A stretch of DNA of 64,000 nt from Escherichia phage AV116. Made by a program: the position numbers and the translations under genes. The stretch's first letter is position 1; each line of letters starts with the position of its first letter. Of the stretch, positions 25,456 to 42,943 are shown piece after piece. The stretch lies in the sequence record OR352946.1; one strand, written 5' to 3'. The notes under the pieces were generated by a model. That model saw nothing but the letters and a program-made list of their open reading frames with translations, made no database searches and was not told the DNA's origin.

Positions 25456-25638
25456 TTATAGTGAATTCACGTAGTCAATGAGTTCTTGTTCTTTCCTGTC
25501 AAATGATTCCAACAATGCTTGATATTCTTCGTCCGTCAAAGGAGCATATTCATCATACGCATTGGTGGCTGCTTGCTCATCCAATAGGTCATGGATAAGT
25601 TCAAACAGTTTAGTTTTCTCTTCTTTAGTCAATTTCAT
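25456..25638 (-). CDS. hypothetical acidic protein
   Basis: 60 aa ORF. Confidence 0.4.
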   Translation of the reverse strand: MKLTKEEKTKLFELIHDLLDEQAATNAYDEYAPLTDEEYQALLESFDRKEQELIDYVNSL

Positions 25639-26099
25639 TTAGGTTCCCAATCAACAATCACAATTTCTAGTTTAGTGGAATACGTATCTAAAATCTCTTC
25701 GATGACATCCCAGTTTCCACCACCAATACCTGCACCAATTCTTGGCATATAAATTACAGGCTTTGTTATCTTATTCTTTCCGAATTCATTTAATTCTATT
25801 ATACAATTCATTAAAGCAGAGTACTCAAAATTAGGTCCCGGCTCAAACTGTGTATAAAGATTAAAGCAATAAGCTTTATGGGTCTTAAAATATTTTTCAT
25901 AAACCGAATAAGTCCCGAGTTTAGACTTGTCTCCGAATTCGGTTTGAAGTTTATCGGCTTCCAGAATTTTTGGATAAGCCTTTGCTAATTGTCCTGCCAC
26001 ACCAGCGCCCATTGTATGAAAACAATTACACCCGTGAGCAATATTATTACCTTTAGAAAACAGGGCGACAATATCGCCCTTGATATAGTTTTTAATCAC
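25635..26099 (-). CDS. macro domain protein, TARG1/OARD1/DarG-like (putative ADP-ribosyl hydrolase)
   Basis: YIKGDIVALF...IAHGCNCFHTMGAGVAGQ and C-terminal YMPRIGAGIGGGNWDVIEEI align with remembered TARG1 motifs (YVKGDLF, LAHCIS..MGAGIA, MPRIGCGLD); probable GTG start at 26099 overlapping upstream stop (track start 26129 is TTG). Confidence 0.6.
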   Translation of the reverse strand: MIKNYIKGDIVALFSKGNNIAHGCNCFHTMGAGVAGQLAKAYPKILEADKLQTEFGDKSKLGTYSVYEKYFKTHKAYCFNLYTQFEPGPNFEYSALMNCIIELNEFGKNKITKPVIYMPRIGAGIGGGNWDVIEEILDTYSTKLEIVIVDWEPK

Positions 26100-26439
26100 T
26101 TGCTGCAAGTCCTCTAGTATAAGAGTCAACTAGACGGTCCACCATAGAATTGCATGCCGCCTTATCTTTAGGTTCCGCCACCGAGCATTCTAATATTTGC
26201 CATTTTTTATAGTATCTTTTAATTAAGGTAGACGCCTTGAACCTACTAGACGCCCCATCTTTTTCTCCGTCTTTATACGCATATAACAATTTTTGTGAAA
26301 AATCTACTTTACACTCTTGACTTTTACCACAATAATCAGACGCCGTTCTGTTTGTATACTCCGTTACATCAGTATATGTAGTATTAGCAAGAGCGTTAAA
26401 TGAAACCAAGCCAACTATTAAAGCCAACATTTTGGTCAT
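26092..26439 (-). CDS. secreted/periplasmic protein (positional equivalent of T4 vs)
   Basis: 115 aa; N-terminal signal peptide-like MTKMLALIVGLVSFNALA. Confidence 0.45.
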   Translation of the reverse strand: MTKMLALIVGLVSFNALANTTYTDVTEYTNRTASDYCGKSQECKVDFSQKLLYAYKDGEKDGASSRFKASTLIKRYYKKWQILECSVAEPKDKAACNSMVDRLVDSYTRGLAASD

Positions 26440-26978
26440 TCTTTTATTTCCAGTAGTTTATTTGATTTAAGGTAATTAGCCTTTTCTAGGACTTCAGAAG
26501 CATATTTACTTCCAGCACTTGTCTTCCATCCCGCATTATATGAGGATATGGCTTTCCTTATATCCCCGTTATGTATATTTAACCAATAAGAAAATTCGAT
26601 ATAAGCCCATCTGGCTGAATTAGACCGCTTAGATAGCATTTTCTTAATTTGGGCATCAGTCATATTATAACCAAGCTGGTTAATTCTTGCCCTCATTGTT
26701 GGTAGATAGTTTTGGAACATTCCATACGCATGGTGACCTTTCTTATCTTTAAGATTAATACCGGCAGATGATTCCTGCCATAGTATTGCGGCCATTATGT
26801 ATCCAAGTCCTTTCTTATGCATATTTTCATGCGTTTTAAATTTTCCGTCCTTAGAAAACTGTTCCCCAAACTGATAAGCATAATTCAAGTTATCGAGTTG
26901 GACATTACTAAAAGTATGCTCGGAGCTATGTGCTGATAACGAAAGAGCAAATAGACCAGCGAGTAGTGCTTTTCTCAT
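26436..26978 (-). CDS. secreted protein with lytic transglycosylase-like motif (vs.1-position)
   Basis: signal peptide MRKALLAGLFALSLSAHS; LWQESS motif reminiscent of SLT catalytic Glu-Ser. Confidence 0.45.
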   Translation of the reverse strand: MRKALLAGLFALSLSAHSSEHTFSNVQLDNLNYAYQFGEQFSKDGKFKTHENMHKKGLGYIMAAILWQESSAGINLKDKKGHHAYGMFQNYLPTMRARINQLGYNMTDAQIKKMLSKRSNSARWAYIEFSYWLNIHNGDIRKAISSYNAGWKTSAGSKYASEVLEKANYLKSNKLLEIKE

Positions 26979-26986
26979 GTTTACCT

Positions 26987-27445
26987 CTAGATTTTAATCA
27001 CTGCTTTAGAAGCTTTTCCTGGTAGTCGTTTACTGTTAATAATAGCCATTCTACATTGAAGAGTCTTCATTTTGAATGCCGGATTTTCGCGACAAACTGT
27101 AAGTCCTAACCAAAGATTTCCGTCAGTTATTTCTAAACGGCCTGGGCGATATTCGACACCTTCGACAAAATCTTCATCAACATCCGGACGTGCCGGCATT
27201 GATAAAAATTCTGCAACTTCTTTAACGTGATTTTTTACTTTATGAAATAATTCAAAAACGTAATTCTCATCTATTTCTCTCTGGATGGCACGATCTAAGA
27301 GATGTTGAGAATACTTGATATGAAAGCCTGGTAGTCCAAGAGACTTTGCAGCATCTTTTATACCGGCATTTATTTTGCGGAACTCCGTTTCAAAGATTCG
27401 ACGGAGTTTATTACGGCGGATAAAAACATCCGAATTGATAGTCAT
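26987..27445 (-). CDS. regB: site-specific RNA endonuclease RegB
   Basis: 152 aa; matches remembered T4 RegB (SQHLLDRAIQREID, EYRPGRLEITDGNLWLG). Confidence 0.75.
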   Translation of the reverse strand: MTINSDVFIRRNKLRRIFETEFRKINAGIKDAAKSLGLPGFHIKYSQHLLDRAIQREIDENYVFELFHKVKNHVKEVAEFLSMPARPDVDEDFVEGVEYRPGRLEITDGNLWLGLTVCRENPAFKMKTLQCRMAIINSKRLPGKASKAVIKI

Positions 27446-27473
27446 TTTGATTTCTCCTCTAGTTGACAGGTCT

Positions 27474-27502
27474 ATAGTAACACAACTAGAGGAGAAGTAA
27501 AC
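27474..27502 (-). promoter_or_regulatory. T4-type early promoter-like element upstream of regB
   Basis: minus strand GTTTAC-N17-TACTAT. Confidence 0.5.
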
Positions 27503-27506
27503 TACT

Positions 27507-27722
27507 TTATTGATAAAATGGAGTTAAAGCCCAGGATTCTTTAGATACTATATTGGCGAAATGCCTCATCTCTTCGATTTGGCGACGACGCTGGTCAGCA
27601 TAGTCTTCTTCGCCTTCTTCCTTACAGTCTTCAAGGTCTTCTTCAAGATACTTTAAGTATTCACTACAAATTTTGTTGACCTTTTCTTGGAAGTCCAATA
27701 ACCCAGTAATAGTAGAAGCCAT
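27507..27722 (-). CDS. hypothetical acidic protein (vs.3-position)
   Basis: 71 aa ORF. Confidence 0.45.
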   Translation of the reverse strand: MASTITGLLDFQEKVNKICSEYLKYLEEDLEDCKEEGEEDYADQRRRQIEEMRHFANIVSKESWALTPFYQ

Positions 27723-27988
27723 TAGTATTTTTCCTCAGGTCGAAATACCGCACGACATGCCCACATGCTGGCTTCTTTTAGATGTTGCTTAGCATACTTA
27801 AGAGCCTGCACTGCATCCATATCTTCTTTGGTTTGTTGCTCTGTTTCATTTTCTTTCAAGATATATGCTTCTTCAATCAGAGCATCAAACATCAATCCAA
27901 GACGGACTTCGGCATCTTTAATAGCGTTCACTTTACTGATTTTATCATCGGTATGCGGCTTGTAGCCTTTGATGTCTTCAATCGACAT
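27722..27988 (-). CDS. candidate anti-CBASS cyclic-oligonucleotide sponge Acb2 (vs.4-position)
   Basis: 89 aa from ATG at 27988 with AGGAAA SD; second ORF after regB, matching the T4 vs.4 slot and size class; sequence not verifiable from memory. Confidence 0.45.
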   Translation of the reverse strand: MSIEDIKGYKPHTDDKISKVNAIKDAEVRLGLMFDALIEEAYILKENETEQQTKEDMDAVQALKYAKQHLKEASMWACRAVFRPEEKY

Positions 27989-28202
27989 AAGGAATTTCCT
28001 CATCAGTGGCAAGGTCATATTCGACCAATTGGATAGGCTCATTAATACCATATCCACGTACAGTGATATCGGTTGACGGATAGTTTCCAGTAATATCACC
28101 CATTCTAAATGCTTCAATGAATGATTGCTCGCCTGAGCAACTAAACCAGGCGGCAAAACATTTTAAAACATCTTCAGACCCTTCTATAATCAATTTAGCC
28201 AT
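27978..28202 (-). CDS. hypothetical acidic protein (vs.5-position)
   Basis: 74 aa ORF. Confidence 0.4.
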   Translation of the reverse strand: MAKLIIEGSEDVLKCFAAWFSCSGEQSFIEAFRMGDITGNYPSTDITVRGYGINEPIQLVEYDLATDEEIPYVD

Positions 28203-28564
28203 TATAGACTCTCAGTAAAGGTACGAGCGATAACGTCGCGCTGCTGTTCCGGAGTCAGAGAGTTAAAGCGAACTGCATAACCGGATACACGGATGGTCAG
28301 CTGCGGATATTTTTCTGGATGCTTAACTGCATCTTCTAGAGTTTCACGACGCAGAACGTTAACGTTCAGATGTTGACCACCTTCAATTTTAACTTTAGGT
28401 TGATGTTCAATTTCAATTTCACGGGCATGCAAACCGTAGAAAATTTCCGGGTCTACAATAGTGTCTTCTTTAAAAGTCTTAGAGACAATAATCCGGGCTT
28501 GAGTACCATCTTCAAAATAAATAGTGCCTTTATGTGCACCTTCAAGAATTTGATATGCTTTCAT
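28202..28564 (-). CDS. autonomous glycyl radical cofactor GrcA/YfiD-like (T4 Y06I-like)
   Basis: C-terminal approx 60 aa ([60 protein letters not shown]) match E. coli GrcA as I remember it, including the RVSGY glycyl-radical motif. Confidence 0.85.
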
Positions 28565-28570
28565 ATAACC

Positions 28571-28879
28571 TCAATTAGAAAATAAATTTATCCAAGTTTT
28601 TTCTTTAATCAAAAATGGGTCGGAATTAAACGCCATTAAACTTTGAGTGATTAATCCCTTAAATGGCCCATCAATAAATTCCATTTTGAAATGCGGAATA
28701 CTAGTCATCAACCGTGCATTAGGAGCAGTACAAAGAACCTGCTGCCCTGCGAACGGACCTTTAGTCAAACGATATCGTTTAGGTTTAAAATGGTAAATCT
28801 CGTAATTTTCTACAAGAGCCCTTTTATTGCATACTGGGCTGTTATAACAATACTCAAAAACTTCAATAGTGGTCATCAT
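28571..28879 (-). CDS. hypothetical cysteine-containing protein (vs.7-position)
   Basis: ATG at 28879 in ATGA overlap with upstream stop. Confidence 0.4.
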   Translation of the reverse strand: MMTTIEVFEYCYNSPVCNKRALVENYEIYHFKPKRYRLTKGPFAGQQVLCTAPNARLMTSIPHFKMEFIDGPFKGLITQSLMAFNSDPFLIKEKTWINLFSN

Positions 28880-29415
28880 TGCATTCCAATCACAAAAAAT
28901 TGAGGACGAGCAATACCGCCGATGCAATATTTGCTTTTGCAACAGTGTTGGACTGTTTTAATATGGACATTGTAAATCTTATCCATATCAGGAGCTTTAA
29001 TAGGCTCGTCAATTATGTACAGAATACGAGAAAGCGTTAATCCACGGAATTTAGAACCTTCATTGCCAATAAAACTACGAACAGAATCAGTAAATAAACG
29101 GAATCGAATATCGTCGCTAGAATAACGAGAAAATTCTTTTTTAATGTTGCCGGCAGAAATTTTAGCATAAGCTGAAGTATTAGAAAGAACAATAACTGTT
29201 CCACCATCATACAGCCAATTAACAGCAAAATTAGTTACTGCGGTCGATTTACCTGATTGTCTGCCGCCGTCTAAACGAAGTGTACAGTACTGCTTGAGTA
29301 CGTCTTCAAATGGTGGGACATAACCGTTCTTACAAATTTCTTCTACTCTAGCATCAGAATGGTGTGTAAAAGCATTCATCAGGGATAGATAAGGACCAGT
29401 TAAAAATGTTCTCAT
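28876..29415 (-). CDS. small P-loop NTPase (vs.8-position)
   Basis: Walker A GGRQSGKST; Walker B-like ILYIIDEP. Confidence 0.5.
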   Translation of the reverse strand: MRTFLTGPYLSLMNAFTHHSDARVEEICKNGYVPPFEDVLKQYCTLRLDGGRQSGKSTAVTNFAVNWLYDGGTVIVLSNTSAYAKISAGNIKKEFSRYSSDDIRFRLFTDSVRSFIGNEGSKFRGLTLSRILYIIDEPIKAPDMDKIYNVHIKTVQHCCKSKYCIGGIARPQFFVIGMQ

Positions 29416-29496
29416 TTAGTTTCTCTTTTAGGTTGGGCCATTCCGTGGCGCATGAATTGTCCATTTCTGTATTTACCCCTCCAAGTAATTATGAAT

Positions 29497-29526
29497 ATAC
29501 TATCACAATTCTAGGAGAAAGTAAAC
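29497..29526 (-). promoter_or_regulatory. T4-type early promoter-like element
   Basis: minus strand GTTTAC-N18-TAGTAT. Confidence 0.45.
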
Positions 29527-29528
29527 TG

Positions 29529-29831
29529 TTATTTACCTTTAATTACTTTAGCTGCTTCGATAGCCGCTTGCTGAAGGTCATCCATAGACATACCAAATTT
29601 AGAAGCAAAGTTATCAATTTTCTTTTCGACAGCATTCAAAGGCTTGGCCTGTTTACCTTCATTAGCGCCAGGAAGAGCGAGAATACGCTCTTTGTCAATA
29701 TAAAGGCTTACAAGTTTCTTACGGTCTTTATCGGACAAATCATGAAATGAATGGGCCTTTTTATTTATAGCGGCTTCTAATTTACCTGCACTCACTCGCG
29801 CTTCAGTAATAAATTCTTGATATGTTTTCAT
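29529..29831 (-). CDS. internal protein with capsid-targeting sequence (IPII/IPIII-like)
   Basis: N-terminus MKTYQEFITEARV is the T4 internal-protein capsid-targeting sequence with L-x-E prohead protease site. Confidence 0.65.
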   Translation of the reverse strand: MKTYQEFITEARVSAGKLEAAINKKAHSFHDLSDKDRKKLVSLYIDKERILALPGANEGKQAKPLNAVEKKIDNFASKFGMSMDDLQQAAIEAAKVIKGK

Positions 29832-29861
29832 TTTTGTTTCCTTGTTTGTTTTGATAGAGTA

Positions 29862-29891
29862 ATTATACCATATTAATACTTAAGCGTAAAC
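29862..29891 (-). promoter_or_regulatory. T4-type early promoter-like element
   Basis: minus strand GTTTAC-N18-TATAAT. Confidence 0.5.
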
Positions 29892-29894
29892 AAT

Positions 29895-30155
29895 TTAAGC
29901 TTTACCGCCAGAAATAATTCCGAAGTTGTTAAAATCGTATCCAATATCGTCAACATCTACTTTAGGACTTACTACAACATAAGCAATTTCACTACGTTTT
30001 GCATAGGTGTTGATTTCTTTACCATCGCCACCTAAGAAAGAATACCCATTACGTTTTAATGAGCCAAAGTCTTCGGCATCACCAATGAAAGCTTTAACTT
30101 TAAATTTAGGACCTTTGGCATCTGCTTCAGCGATAAATTCTTGATACATTTTCAT
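29895..30155 (-). CDS. internal protein-like (capsid-targeting sequence), glycine-rich
   Basis: N-terminus MKMYQEFIAEA. Confidence 0.55.
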   Translation of the reverse strand: MKMYQEFIAEADAKGPKFKVKAFIGDAEDFGSLKRNGYSFLGGDGKEINTYAKRSEIAYVVVSPKVDVDDIGYDFNNFGIISGGKA

Positions 30156-30161
30156 TTTTCC

Positions 30162-30575
30162 TTAGTAAATTGATTTACCATAGTATTTGTACCAAGTCGG
30201 ACGTTGAGCAATTTTTTCATCTAAGCGTGCTTGACTTATCGCAATGGACGCTTCAGACGGGACGTAATTATTACGAAATTCTATAGGAATGTCGGAAATA
30301 TCCTGGACAGTCGTGTCCTTGATTTTGAAACCACGTTTCAAACATTCGGCTATTAGCTCGATTTGACGTAAACGTAAAAATTCGAGTTTGTCGTAAAAGA
30401 ATGTTACGTGACCTGTGCCTAAGATAAATGTTGGAGAGATTTTAAAATCCTTTACACGTTTACCGTTTTGAACATGTTTACGGACTGCACCAAATACGCG
30501 TGGTAATTCACGATACTCAGCCATAAGATGTTGGTCGGTCAGTTCAGAAACAAGTGTTAAATTGATACGGGTCAT
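30162..30575 (-). CDS. denV: endonuclease V (pyrimidine dimer DNA glycosylase) DenV
   Basis: from [12 protein letters not shown]; near-identical to remembered T4 endo V. Confidence 0.9.
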
Positions 30576-30603
30576 AATTTCCTCCAAGTAGTTGATGAAT
30601 GTA

Positions 30604-30632
30604 TAGTATCAAAGTCCTTGGAGGAAGTAAAC
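30604..30632 (-). promoter_or_regulatory. T4-type early promoter-like element upstream of denV
   Basis: minus strand GTTTAC-N17-TACTAT. Confidence 0.45.
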
Positions 30633-30633
30633 A

Positions 30634-30915
30634 CTATTTTTCTGAAGCGCCTGAAATATATTTTTCAAGACGCTGTTTCATCAACGAGCCGTTCTTAGCG
30701 ATTTCTTCCGGTTTATCGCACATACGCAACAATGCTTCAAGCTTAGCGATATCGCTGGTACGTTCAAATTTGCGAGTATCTATCTTACTAGCAAGTTCAG
30801 AAATACGTGCTAATAGACTTTCAGCTTCAACCAAAGCTGCACCTAGCTTAGTTGCAAATGTGTCAGTAGCTTCGTTAAGAATAGATTCTGATAAAAATTC
30901 ACTATATGTTTTCAT
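30634..30915 (-). CDS. internal protein-like (capsid-targeting sequence)
   Basis: ATG at 30915 gives [11 protein letters not shown]; ATGA overlap with lysozyme stop. Confidence 0.5.
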
Positions 30916-31400
30916 ATATACGCTTTCCAAGTTCCTGTTTTAAATGTTGAGATTACGCGTTTCGCGCGATTAGGTGTCTGACGATACCATTTAGATTGGG
31001 CTAGATTTACTGCCGCTTCATCCCAACGTTTCTGTTGAAGCATACGAAGAGAATTAGTAAAACCGGCGACTCCTGCTACACCCATTTGGAAGACCATATT
31101 GACCAATGCACACCGACGAACTGCATCTAAAGAATCATATACCGGTTTAAGTTTAGCATTACCCAAGATTCCGCGGACGGCTTTATCAACGTCTTCATTA
31201 AATAGCTTTTCAGCCTCATCAAGGGTAATTGTACCGTTGCATTTACGACCGATCATTCTGTCAAGTTCAGCTTTAGCTATGGCTAAAGACGGGTTCTTTG
31301 TTACTAAATGGCCTATGCCAATTGTCCAAAAGCCTTCAGTGTCTTTGTATAAAGTCAGTCTAAGACCTTCGTCATTACGAAGCATTTCAAATATATTCAT
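30912..31400 (-). CDS. e: endolysin (T4 lysozyme e)
   Basis: from [31 protein letters not shown]; GGGAGG SD. Confidence 0.95.
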
Positions 31401-31434
31401 AATACCTCCCACGTTTATAGGAGGTATTTATTAC

Positions 31435-31893
31435 TTATAGGAGGGTAGTGAGCACCTTATATAATGATTTGCCCATTACATATTCCCATTGAGAAGGTTT
31501 AATTAAAGCGAATGCATCAAATTCAGGAATCTGTCGTCCGTCTGGGAATGTATGATAGGAATTACAAACACTGTTTCTGAATTGCTCGTGCTCTACAGGG
31601 ATGGTATATAGGAACAGATGAATATTCTTATTGTCTGAGTAATGATGTTCACCTAGGTCTTTCAGGAAGGCAGGGTCATATTGTGTAAACCCAGTTTCTT
31701 CTTCGCATTCGCGAATAGCGGCTTCAATAGGAGATTCGCCAGGTTCGACACGGCCTTTAGGAATATCCCACCGATGAGCTAAAGAACCTTTAGGACGAGA
31801 ACCAGTTACACGCCCCATGAATAATTCTTTATCTTCGGTAAGGAAAATAATACCGGCTGATAGTTCTTTCACTTTATTTTTCTTACTCATCAT
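31435..31893 (-). CDS. nudE: Nudix hydrolase NudE
   Basis: Nudix box GRVEPGESPIEAAIRECEEETG. Confidence 0.85.
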   Translation of the reverse strand: MMSKKNKVKELSAGIIFLTEDKELFMGRVTGSRPKGSLAHRWDIPKGRVEPGESPIEAAIRECEEETGFTQYDPAFLKDLGEHHYSDNKNIHLFLYTIPVEHEQFRNSVCNSYHTFPDGRQIPEFDAFALIKPSQWEYVMGKSLYKVLTTLL

Positions 31894-33647: not shown

Positions 33648-34604
33648 TTATTTGAAAGGTTTTACCATATGAAAATTTTCTTTAAACCGTTTGATGTAAT
33701 CATTTTTGCCGAGCTTATGATACATAGCCACTACTTCATAATAGTTCTCGTATGCGTACTCACGGAACCAACCGGAGGTGATGCTTGTGCAGACTTTTTC
33801 TAATGCCATCATGAAACTGGCTTCAGGGTTAATTTTAAAGTCATTAGGAATCTGAGAACGTTCTAACGCTAGTACACATGATTCTTCGTATACGCCGGCC
33901 AATTTGACCATTTCCGGTAATGATTCGAACTTCTCGCGTGAGGTCATGACTTCAGAACCATCTTTCATATAAAATGTATACGCTGGACGGTCTGTTAGTG
34001 CAATGGCTTCATGAATAGTATCATGGTCATATGTATAGATGTCATCTTTAAAGAACGCACTTTTAGAAGTGTCAAGAACTGGGTGAGCATAATTCAAGGT
34101 TTCTTTCTGGCGTTTCAGCATAATTTCAGTAAGTTCATCGTTCAGTGTAACACCTTTACCACGAAGATACTGAATATGGTTCATAGTCTTTAAAAAGAAT
34201 GGATTATTTTTCTTGAAACGATGAGACATCTTAATTGCAAGACATATCTCAGGAGTTGCCCAGTAAAACCCGTTCAAACGGTCTTTAGTCAAATTTTTCT
34301 TGGCGTATTTTAAAAGGTCATAAGAAGACGTGAAATCTTCAGGAGTGAGTTCACCGACTAATTCACGGACATTAGTGATTGCCGGAACAATATATGCTTC
34401 AAAATGAGTTTCGCGTCCATTATGGAAGCATTTGAAAACTTGGACATCAGGGTTATCTTGGTGAACATATACACCCATCATTTGATTTTTGAATGCGTTC
34501 CAAGAACCTTGGTCCGCAATAAAGTCCCAATCACTATTTTTAATAGCGCTAGAATCAATAAGACCGTGATAGTGAAGTGCACGAGAACCAATAACTAACA
34601 TCAT
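33648..34604 (-). CDS. hypothetical protein, 318 aa
   Basis: long co-oriented ORF. Confidence 0.5.
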   Translation of the reverse strand: MMLVIGSRALHYHGLIDSSAIKNSDWDFIADQGSWNAFKNQMMGVYVHQDNPDVQVFKCFHNGRETHFEAYIVPAITNVRELVGELTPEDFTSSYDLLKYAKKNLTKDRLNGFYWATPEICLAIKMSHRFKKNNPFFLKTMNHIQYLRGKGVTLNDELTEIMLKRQKETLNYAHPVLDTSKSAFFKDDIYTYDHDTIHEAIALTDRPAYTFYMKDGSEVMTSREKFESLPEMVKLAGVYEESCVLALERSQIPNDFKINPEASFMMALEKVCTSITSGWFREYAYENYYEVVAMYHKLGKNDYIKRFKENFHMVKPFK

Positions 34605-38673: not shown

Positions 38674-39300
38674 TTATTTACGGGTTTTTGCATACTGAGC
38701 AGCGTCAGCAGCCAAACGACCTGCCTGACGAAGTTTTTCTTTAATCTCATCGTGAAGTGGTTGAGTGTACTTCAAACCTTCAATAGTCAAATAAAGACGA
38801 TAAAGGTCTGGGGTATCAAGGTTGTTGATATGTTGGCCATTACGAAGACTGTTGAATTCACGAACGAGTGAAGATGTATCGGATTCAATATCACGAACAA
38901 GCGAAGATAGTTGTTTATATTTTTTTTCCAGGCTAGAAGTATCAAACTTAAGAGCAGGAGCTTTAGGAGTTGCTTTTACTTCCGGCTTAGGCTCAGGTTT
39001 TGCTACTGCTTTAGGGGTCGCAGGTTTAGGAGTGGTAGGAGCAGGTTTTACTTTAGGCGAACCAGATTTAGCAGAAACACCACCACTAACAATATCTTTG
39101 AATGCTTTAGAAGCTCTGTAATATTCTTTTTGGCTGGAAGTGTCGATACCGTACATGGCTTGAACGTTTTTGAAAAACTCTGTACTAGTTTTTGTACCAG
39201 AAATAGCATCGTAAGCAGCTTGCCACTTCTCTTTTGTCATACGTACACCGGCTTCGGTGATTACTTCCGTTTCGGCTAAAAATTCATTAAAAGTATACAT
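38674..39300 (-). CDS. internal protein-like basic protein with Pro/Lys/Thr-rich linker
   Basis: N-terminus MYTFNEFLAETEV resembles capsid-targeting sequence; PKVKPAPTTPKPATPKAVAKPEPKPEVKATPKAP low-complexity segment. Confidence 0.5.
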   Translation of the reverse strand: MYTFNEFLAETEVITEAGVRMTKEKWQAAYDAISGTKTSTEFFKNVQAMYGIDTSSQKEYYRASKAFKDIVSGGVSAKSGSPKVKPAPTTPKPATPKAVAKPEPKPEVKATPKAPALKFDTSSLEKKYKQLSSLVRDIESDTSSLVREFNSLRNGQHINNLDTPDLYRLYLTIEGLKYTQPLHDEIKEKLRQAGRLAADAAQYAKTRK

Positions 39301-39681: not shown

Positions 39682-39758
<77 letters not shown>

Positions 39759-40468: not shown

Positions 40469-40540
40469 TGGCCCTGGCTGGTTTCGATCCAGCTACCTAT
40501 CAGTTATGAGCTGACAGCTCTCCCATTGAGCTACAGGGCC
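40469..40540 (-). tRNA. tRNA with CAT anticodon (Ile-lysidine type or Met)
   Basis: hand-folded: acceptor GGCCCTG/CAGGGCC, D-arm GCTC-AATGGGA-GAGC, anticodon loop CTCATAA, T-arm GCTGG-ATCGAAA-CCAGC; CCA not encoded. Confidence 0.8.
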
Positions 40541-41866: not shown

Positions 41867-42178
41867 TTATTTTATGCCTTTAGAAGAAATGGTATTTTGG
41901 CGTTTAACCCCTGTTTGTGAAAAATCGTGGTTATCGATTTGGTCGACTCGCATAACACCAAATGCAGATTTAATTTTAGCCTTTGAACCTTTTTTGATAC
42001 TAATTATCATATAAGTATCATTTTTCTTATATTCGAAATTTGTTACTTCAACGCCTTGATTAGAAATTGACTTAATAATAGCATTAGCGTATTCATCATC
42101 TAACGGACCGGTGGTGTTAATAATAAAATTTTTATCGGCTTTAGTAGCTTCAGCGATAAACTCTTGATAAGTTTTCAT
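41867..42178 (-). CDS. ipI: internal protein I-like (capsid-targeting sequence)
   Basis: N-terminus MKTYQEFIAEA; adjacent to 57B as T4 ipI. Confidence 0.6.
   Translation of the reverse strand: MKTYQEFIAEATKADKNFIINTTGPLDDEYANAIIKSISNQGVEVTNFEYKKNDTYMIISIKKGSKAKIKSAFGVMRVDQIDNHDFSQTGVKRQNTISSKGIK

Positions 42179-42257: not shown

Positions 42258-42943
<686 letters not shown>

Follow-up and report, generated by a model that had tools for sequence, protein, structure and literature searches.

The analysed stretch of DNA (the window) comprises 64,000 nucleotides of Escherichia phage AV116 (record OR352946.1). The ORFs of the window were translated and compared by BLASTP with the annotated genes of phage T4 (NC_000866), and this comparison placed the gene studied here in an early-gene block that extends from regB to denV. 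The gene lies between the ORFs occupying the vs.3 and vs.5 slots, which is the position of vs.4 in T-even phages. The genes regB and vs.6 are the synteny anchors. The two immediate neighbours, of 71 and 74 aa, gave no match in the Pfam search. In T4, denV comes directly after vs.8, whereas in the window the two genes are separated by an ipII homologue and by a second internal-protein-like ORF (Table 1).

The initial annotation had placed this gene in the vs.4 slot by counting ORFs in a T4 pattern running from vs.3 to vs.8 downstream of regB and ending before denV. The pattern itself, and its vicinity to regB, were borne out by BLASTP. Its direction has to be corrected, as the genes are on the minus strand and vs.3 to vs.8 are therefore upstream of regB in transcription; the direct contact of vs.8 with denV does not hold either. 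Since the gene order is the same as in T4, the positional argument for the vs.4 slot holds. In the Tequatrovirus vB_EcoM_P8, the orthologue found in the same slot is annotated as 'anti-CBASS protein 2'.

Table 1. Features of the acb2 region, of its neighbouring genes and of acb1 in the window. Identities "to T4" are between the protein encoded by the window ORF and its T4 counterpart.
Feature	Position	Strand	Evidence or content
regB endoribonuclease, synteny anchor	26987..27445	-	Pfam REGB_T4 E = 6e-69; 77% identity to T4
vs.3-slot ORF, 71 aa, next gene downstream of acb2	27507..27722	-	T4 Vs.3, 40% over 65 aa, E = 3e-10
acb2 / vs.4 CDS, predicted cyclic-dinucleotide sponge	27722..27988	-	Translation; PDB, Pfam and PHROG matches; AlphaFold2 fold; residues; 64% identity to T4 (BLASTP)
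C-terminal conserved segment, codons 66-88	27725..27793	-	A66, A73, A77 (hexamer interface); S74, R79, F82 (cGAMP contacts)
Hypervariable centre, codons 38-65	27794..27877	-	Hairpin tip and first half of helix 2; includes Q61
N-terminal conserved segment, codons 2-38	27875..27985	-	Y9, H12, T13, K24 (cGAMP pocket, helix cap); L30, F34 (oligomer interface)
Shine-Dalgarno-like GAGGA	27997..28001	-	8 nt 5' of the acb2 ATG, within the 3' end of the vs.5-slot ORF
vs.5-slot ORF, 74 aa, next gene upstream of acb2	27978..28202	-	T4 Vs.5, first 18 aa only
vs.6, GrcA-like glycyl-radical cofactor, synteny anchor	28202..28564	-	Pfam Gly_radical E = 2.3e-18; 94% identity to T4
ipII homologue, between vs.8 and denV	29529..29831		94% identity
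Second internal-protein-like ORF, between vs.8 and denV	29895..30155		
tk			81% identity to T4 (BLASTP)
tk.4 (macro domain)			84% identity to T4 (BLASTP)
vs			67% identity to T4 (BLASTP)
vs.1			83% identity to T4 (BLASTP)
vs.7			63% identity to T4 (BLASTP)
vs.8			90% identity to T4 (BLASTP)
denV			91% identity to T4 (BLASTP)
e			83% identity to T4 (BLASTP)
nudE			64% identity to T4 (BLASTP)
Acb1, second anti-CBASS gene, physically unlinked to acb2	42258..42713	-	PDB 7T26/7T27 E = 1.1e-58; Pfam PF23474, 197 bits vs cutoff 27

The acb2 ORF begins with an ATG at 27988 and ends with a TAA at 27724..27722. Its product begins MSIEDIKGYKPH and ends RPEEKY, and the full translation is MSIEDIKGYKPHTDDKISKVNAIKDAEVRLGLMFDALIEEAYILKENETEQQTKEDMDAVQALKYAKQHLKEASMWACRAVFRPEEKY, with 88 residues before the stop codon. 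The limits of the ORF given in the initial annotation were correct, and the length of 89 aa resulted from counting the stop codon. The ribosome-binding context, read directly on the minus strand, is ...GATGAGGAAATTCCTTATG. The final 11 nt of the preceding ORF overlap the acb2 start, and at the other end the acb2 stop and the start of the vs.3-slot ORF form the junction TAATG, in which one base is common to both. Such close packing of genes is characteristic of the early clusters in T-even phages.

A longer frame for acb2, starting from a TTG at 28156 (144 aa in the ORF listing), was rejected, because the homologues start with M(S/A)IEDIKGY, because GAGGA precedes the ATG at 27988 and because the extension is out of frame within the conserved vs.5-slot gene. 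Two plus-strand ORFs beneath acb2 (27765..27965 and 27782..28036) were regarded as spurious, since the annotated genes of the block are all on the minus strand, here and in T4. A scan of positions 26900..30700 for promoters and terminators, which was run without models of T4 middle and late promoters and is silent on acb2 expression, found sites no commoner than in shuffled sequence and none adjoining acb2.

That acb2 is a real gene and not a chance frame is shown by its tblastn matches in 1234 phage records and by the comparison of codons with T4 vs.4. At the two conserved ends, 24 codons differ by synonymous changes only and 7 by non-synonymous ones, which indicates strong purifying selection. 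The N-terminal segment shares 32 of its 36 residues with T4, and 16 of its 20 differing codons are synonymous only; in the C-terminal segment the identity reaches 20 of 23 residues.

The search of the acb2 product against all PDB chains with phmmer returned one strong match, T4 Vs.4 (7UQ2; E = 1e-29, residues 3-88). The absence of similarity to Acb2 members, which the initial annotation had named as the outcome that would speak against the assignment, was thus the opposite of what was found. The Pfam family PF24729 (Acb2/Tad1, hairpin domain; Acb2_Tad1_hairpin) matched with 64.6 bits, against a gathering cutoff of 27, its model spanning residues 8-83. In addition, the protein matched PHROG 717 (phrog_717; E = 1.6e-27), the set by which Jenson et al. 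defined the Vs.4 homologues (PMC10097602). In a search of 5.8 billion proteins, PF24729 was present in all 120 of the matches listed, and several of the listed homologues carry the UniRef name 'Acb2/Tad1 hairpin domain-containing protein'.

An alignment of 61 homologues from the same search (A1), which has 26 invariant columns, was the basis of a profile and of the structure prediction. The profile matched 7UQ2 with E = 6e-42 and also reached the Acb2 of Pseudomonas phage PaMx33 (p26; 8H2J, 8H2X, 8IXZ and others) with E ~9e-5; in the latter match, the IKGY and N..K motifs are aligned, with the pocket Tyr and Lys in register. Some minor matches were discarded as noise from low-complexity acidic helices: the Pfam family DNA_pol_phi (E = 0.005, 15.5 bits against a cutoff of 27.6) and PDB entries of a pyrophosphatase and of CIDRa (E ~0.6-0.8).

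AlphaFold2, run on alignment A1, gave a two-helix hairpin with helices at residues 14-42 and 50-81 (mean pLDDT 88.7, pTM 0.73), in keeping with the earlier description of the product as alpha-helical. The top three hits of the model in a Foldseek search of the PDB were chains of 7UQ2 (E = 4e-7 to 4e-6, TM ~0.7), and the PaMx33 Acb2 entries appeared lower in the ranking, with weaker scores. The model superposes on 7UQ2 with 4.2-4.4 A rmsd. This value reflects the modelling of a single chain, since the termini of the protein become ordered only within the hexamer; the assembled pocket is outside the reach of such a model. CnrX/NccX metal sensors and BAR domains were also retrieved (Foldseek E >= 0.07), but this was considered a generic likeness among helical hairpins. 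The predicted model supports the Acb2 fold.

The structure of T4 Vs.4 is a hexamer with three bound 3'3'-cGAMP molecules (Kd ~30 nM), in which Y8 and F82 stack on the bases and Y8, H11, K23 and R79 make hydrogen bonds or salt bridges (Jenson et al. 2023, PMC10097602). In the same work, inhibition of CapV was abolished by S74N, T12I and A77I and by mutations at L29, A66, A73, Y8 and F82; F33A destabilised the oligomer; and L60 was hit in the genetic screen, although L60F was without effect in vitro (PMC10097602). All the ligand-contact and helix-cap residues of T4 (Y8, H11, T12, K23, S74, R79 and F82) are kept in the window protein as Y9, H12, T13, K24, S74, R79 and F82, and the alignment shows the same for the interface residues L29, F33, A66, A73 and A77, which are L30, F34, A66, A73 and A77 here. 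The position of T4 L60 is occupied by Val, the sole change among these functional positions. Among the 61 homologues, Y9, H12, K24, S74, R79 and F82, and also A66, are invariant (61/61); T13, L30, A73 and A77 are at least 90% conserved; and F34 alternates with Leu.

The window protein thus has, in common with T4 Vs.4 (NP_049728; 7UQ2), the length of 88 aa, the slot between vs.3 and vs.5 upstream of regB, the two-helix hairpin, the cGAMP contacts (Y, H, K, S, R, F) and the interface (L, F, A, A, A). The identity of 64% between the two proteins rises to ~88% at both ends. On the other hand, the window protein has one more N-terminal residue (MSIED instead of MIED) and one fewer at the hairpin tip, and presents Q at the positions of both D61 and T68. 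The two Cys of the T4 tip are absent, as residues 38-65 are essentially unrelated in the two proteins. In this centre only 5 of 28 residues are identical, the nucleotide identity is 37% and 23 of the 28 codons are non-synonymous, so that at the DNA level it is effectively replaced or saturated relative to T4. The variation extends to the 61 homologues, in which the mean column entropy is 2.5 bits in the centre, against 0.3-0.6 bits at the ends, and indels occur at the hairpin tip.

With the Acb2 of PaMx33 (Huiting et al. 2023; PMC10312549) the window protein shares PF24729 and the hairpin fold, and the PaMx33 residues Y11 and K26 align with Y9 and K24. The two differ in that the identity is only 13-20% where Foldseek aligned the model with PaMx33 chains, the value reported between T4 and PaMx33 Acb2 being 24% (PMC10312549), and in that PaMx33 belongs to another phage family and carries the gene in another genomic context. 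The PaMx33 protein has a second, three-fold pocket for cyclic trinucleotides, lined by R67, A70, I71 and T74 (PMC10312549) in the part of helix 2 whose counterpart begins within the hypervariable centre of the window protein. D61 and T68 of T4 Acb2 correspond to R67 and T74 (Cao et al., PMC10312549), and T4 Acb2 binds cyclic dinucleotides but neither cA3 nor cAAG (PMC10312549). In the window protein, the equivalent of R67 is Q61 and that of T74 is Q68, just past the centre, so the R67 and T74 pair is lacking which, on a kinked helix 2, marks the trinucleotide pocket of the broad-spectrum Acb2 proteins of PaMx33 and JBD67 type, binders of both di- and trinucleotides. Because of these two replacements, and because cA3 is not bound by T4 Acb2, the closest relative that has been characterised, we predict that the window Acb2 would bind cyclic dinucleotides only, as in T4. 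The centre (residues 38-65) could nevertheless alter the geometry of the hexamer or the three-fold pocket in ways beyond the reach of sequence comparison.

The Thoeris-inhibiting Acb2_43 also belongs to this family and is a hexameric hairpin, according to Hadary et al. 2025 (PMC12393519). It binds 3'cADPR via extra N- and C-terminal beta-strands (residues T4, H5, L6, V7, K19 and K55) and leaves CBASS uninhibited (PMC12393519). Compared with this protein by its description, the window protein differs in keeping the T4-type Tyr/Phe pocket for cyclic dinucleotides, which argues against a specificity of the Acb2_43 type as far as the residues can tell. In the AlphaFold2 monomer model, DSSP assigned only single-residue bridges, at positions 9 and 87.

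Tad1 is larger and carries, besides the hairpin, a further domain that binds gcADPR. The window protein differs from it in having 88 aa, of which the hairpin model covers residues 8-83. Tad1 entries were not among the significant PDB sequence matches from phmmer or from the profile, which were to Vs.4 and PaMx33 Acb2.

Taken together, these comparisons indicate that the gene is, with high confidence, the vs.4/acb2 orthologue of a Mosigvirus (RB69-like) T-even phage, and that its product would be a T4-like dinucleotide sponge by homology. The assignment to Acb2, which had been made from position, is now supported by sequence, profile, fold and individual residues, and the comparisons with T4 Vs.4 and PaMx33 Acb2 that had been suggested for it both turned out in its favour. 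That the frame arose by chance, or that an unrelated small helical protein occupies the vs.4 position, has a negligible probability. Short helical hairpins do match many folds weakly, as with the CnrX and BAR domain hits, but the homology to Vs.4 covers the full length, the Pfam score is more than twice the curated cutoff, the invariant columns recur across all 61 homologues, and the divergence from T4 is biased to synonymous changes. This reading is excluded. A decayed or neutralised orthologue, no longer acting as a sponge, for example after selection by a Panoptes-like guard, is very improbable. Natural loss-of-function alleles have been reported in related phages (PMC12657218), a loss of function having been proposed for T2 Acb2 and for the truncated acb2 of PaMx41, and the central third of the window protein is very unlike T4. 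Against such decay, the frame is intact and of full length, the T4 positions whose mutation is inactivating (Y8, T12, L29, A66, A73, S74, A77 and F82) are all retained, the ends are under strong purifying selection, and the protein recurs at 95-100% identity in about 135 phage records.

A more substantial alternative, still unlikely, is an Acb2 sponge with a shifted or widened ligand spectrum, in which the centre remodels the three-fold pocket through Q61, K64, Y65 and Q68 contributed by three protomers. Such a protein might accept a second ligand class (cyclic trinucleotides or another immune signal) or might avoid decoys such as the 2'3'-c-di-AMP of Panoptes; the low probability applies to these variants jointly. 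The centre is hypervariable, with indels, across the homologues; Acb2 homologues differ in their binding spectra (PMC10312549) and some bind the Thoeris signal 3'cADPR (PMC12393519); and Lys64 and Tyr65 would be chemically plausible contacts for phosphate or base. However, Q61, K64, Y65 and Q68 are replaced by A, A, I and E in P0003, which is 81% identical, and this lack of conservation in the nearest relatives speaks against another pocket maintained by selection. As the pocket for cyclic dinucleotides is the same as in T4, a reduced binding of 2'3'-c-di-AMP is not expected. In T4 itself, D61R did not lead to binding of cA3, a failure put down to the missing kink in the T4 helix (PMC10312549), and Acb2_43 binds its ligand via residues of the N-terminal beta-strand and not via the Tyr pocket (PMC12393519). 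It is similarly unlikely that the centre is under diversifying selection which tunes the three-fold pocket to another immune signal or changes a surface recognised by a host factor. This reading would start from the indels of the centre and from its effective replacement between T4-like and RB69-like phages while the ends stay under strong purifying selection. If this were true, the ligand or the evasion profile of the Mosigvirus allele would differ from that of T4 Acb2. The T4-like dinucleotide sponge is the reading adopted below.

The region is shared with other phages. A megablast search with positions 26000..31500 retrieved Escherichia phages AV114 and AV109, along with related phages, at 99% DNA identity, and tblastn with the acb2 protein found it in 1234 phage records, about 135 of them at the near-identity cited above and most of the others at 60-80% or below 60%. 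An identical protein is encoded by Escherichia phage NRG-P0074, which belongs to Mosigvirus, the RB69-like genus (Straboviridae, Tevenvirinae). The record of NRG-P0074 labels this protein as 'hypothetical protein', as do many deposited genomes. In the library searched, no paper was found that links Acb2 with RB69 or Mosigvirus, nor one testing a Mosigvirus allele.

By homology with T4 Vs.4, the helical hairpin of the window Acb2 would assemble into a hexamer with three pockets, each situated where the N- and C-terminal segments from two protomers meet. Within a pocket, Tyr9 and Phe82 would stack on the bases, and His12, Lys24, Ser74 and Arg79 would bind the phosphate-ribose ring. We infer that 3'3'-cGAMP and related cyclic dinucleotides would be held in this way at nanomolar affinity, uncleaved. 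The CD-NTase signal would thereby be sequestered, CBASS effectors such as CapV would stay inactive, and the phage cycle could be completed in vivo.

The window also encodes Acb1, which has in common with Acb2 the target, the cyclic-oligonucleotide signals of CBASS. Acb1 (T4 57B; PDB 7T26), a phosphodiesterase of the 2H type, destroys the signal by cleavage; Acb2 has an unrelated fold and sequesters it intact. Acb1, a degrader of cyclic oligonucleotides, would deal with the cyclic trinucleotides or other signals outside the binding range of Acb2. On the other hand, the Panoptes system (OptSE) is triggered when Acb2 sequesters the decoy 2'3'-c-di-AMP, as described for the Acb2 of T4 and Bas38, in dependence on Y8/F82 (PMC12657218). 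By analogy, the sponge activity of the window Acb2 should make the phage detectable by guards of the Panoptes type.

This family has been in the literature since 2023, together with its structure and mechanism, and the Pfam model already captures this protein, so no new principle is involved. The analysis turns a positional guess into a firm annotation: an RB69-like phage with both known anti-CBASS genes of T4, Acb2 and Acb1. This may be of use for forecasting the range of E. coli strains with CBASS that the phage can overcome, and it predicts that the phage would be sensed by Panoptes.

The gene acb2, the vs.4 orthologue that encodes a predicted cyclic-dinucleotide sponge, presents a hypervariable centre (codons 38-65), which comprises the tip of the two-helix hairpin and the first half of helix 2. 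The alignment of 61 homologues revealed a column entropy of 2.5 bits for this segment, against 0.3-0.6 bits at the ends of the protein, as well as the occurrence of indels, and the nucleotide identity of these codons to T4 is 37%. This variability may be due to diversifying selection, to a relaxation of constraint or to replacement of the segment. Both ORFs flanking acb2, which occupy the vs.5 and vs.3 slots, are far less conserved than acb2 itself, and the search in Pfam returned no matches for their proteins. In the tblastn search, Acb2-like proteins were also found in records that do not have the appearance of T-even phages, namely the 144.8-kb record 'Phapecoctavirus DIJ07P2' (60% identity) and the 46.6-kb genome of Escherichia phage vB_EcoS-716R3 (30% identity, E = 4e-6).

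Features of the AV116 window discussed in the text
Feature	Position	Strand	Evidence or location
Tk.4 homologue with macro domain	25635..26129	-	Pfam PF01661, E = 1.9e-6; 84% identity to T4 Tk.4
vs.3-slot ORF, 71 aa	27507..27722	-	40% identity to T4 Vs.3 (92 aa)
acb2 codons 38-65	27794..27877	-	hypervariable
vs.5-slot ORF, 74 aa	27978..28202	-	matches T4 Vs.5 (58 aa) over first 18 residues only
ipII homologue	29529..29831	-	94% identity; between vs.8 and denV
Second ORF with internal-protein leader	29895..30155	-	between vs.8 and denV
Third ORF with internal-protein leader	30634..30930	-	between denV and e
Conserved 318-aa protein, DUF7277 + DUF7275	33648..34604	-	Pfam E = 8.6e-28 and 1.2e-77, respectively
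tRNA Arg-tct	39682..39758	-	ARAGORN
GIY-YIG (Seg-like) homing-endonuclease ORF, 221 aa	39762..40427	-	between the two tRNA genes
tRNA Met-cat	40469..40540	-	ARAGORN
Acb1 homologue (T4 gene 57B; cyclic-oligonucleotide phosphodiesterase)	42258..42713	-	PDB 7T26, Pfam PF23474

Phage AV116 differs from T4 in the gene order around denV (29529..30930, minus strand), where the ORFs related to internal proteins are located, and in the tk.1 to tk.3 block, which is represented by a single 60-aa Tk.2-like ORF (25456..25638). The internal-protein leader, MK(T/M)YQEFI(A/T)EA, occurs again in the ORF at 41867..42178, and a looser form of it is present in the ORF at 38674..39300. Only two tRNA genes were identified by ARAGORN in the entire window.

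The ORF assigned as the Acb1 homologue matched PDB 7T26 with E = 1.1e-58 and Pfam PF23474 with 197 bits, and its distance to acb2 is ~14.5 kb. Since an Acb1 homologue is present in addition to acb2, the phage has both known T4 anti-CBASS genes.
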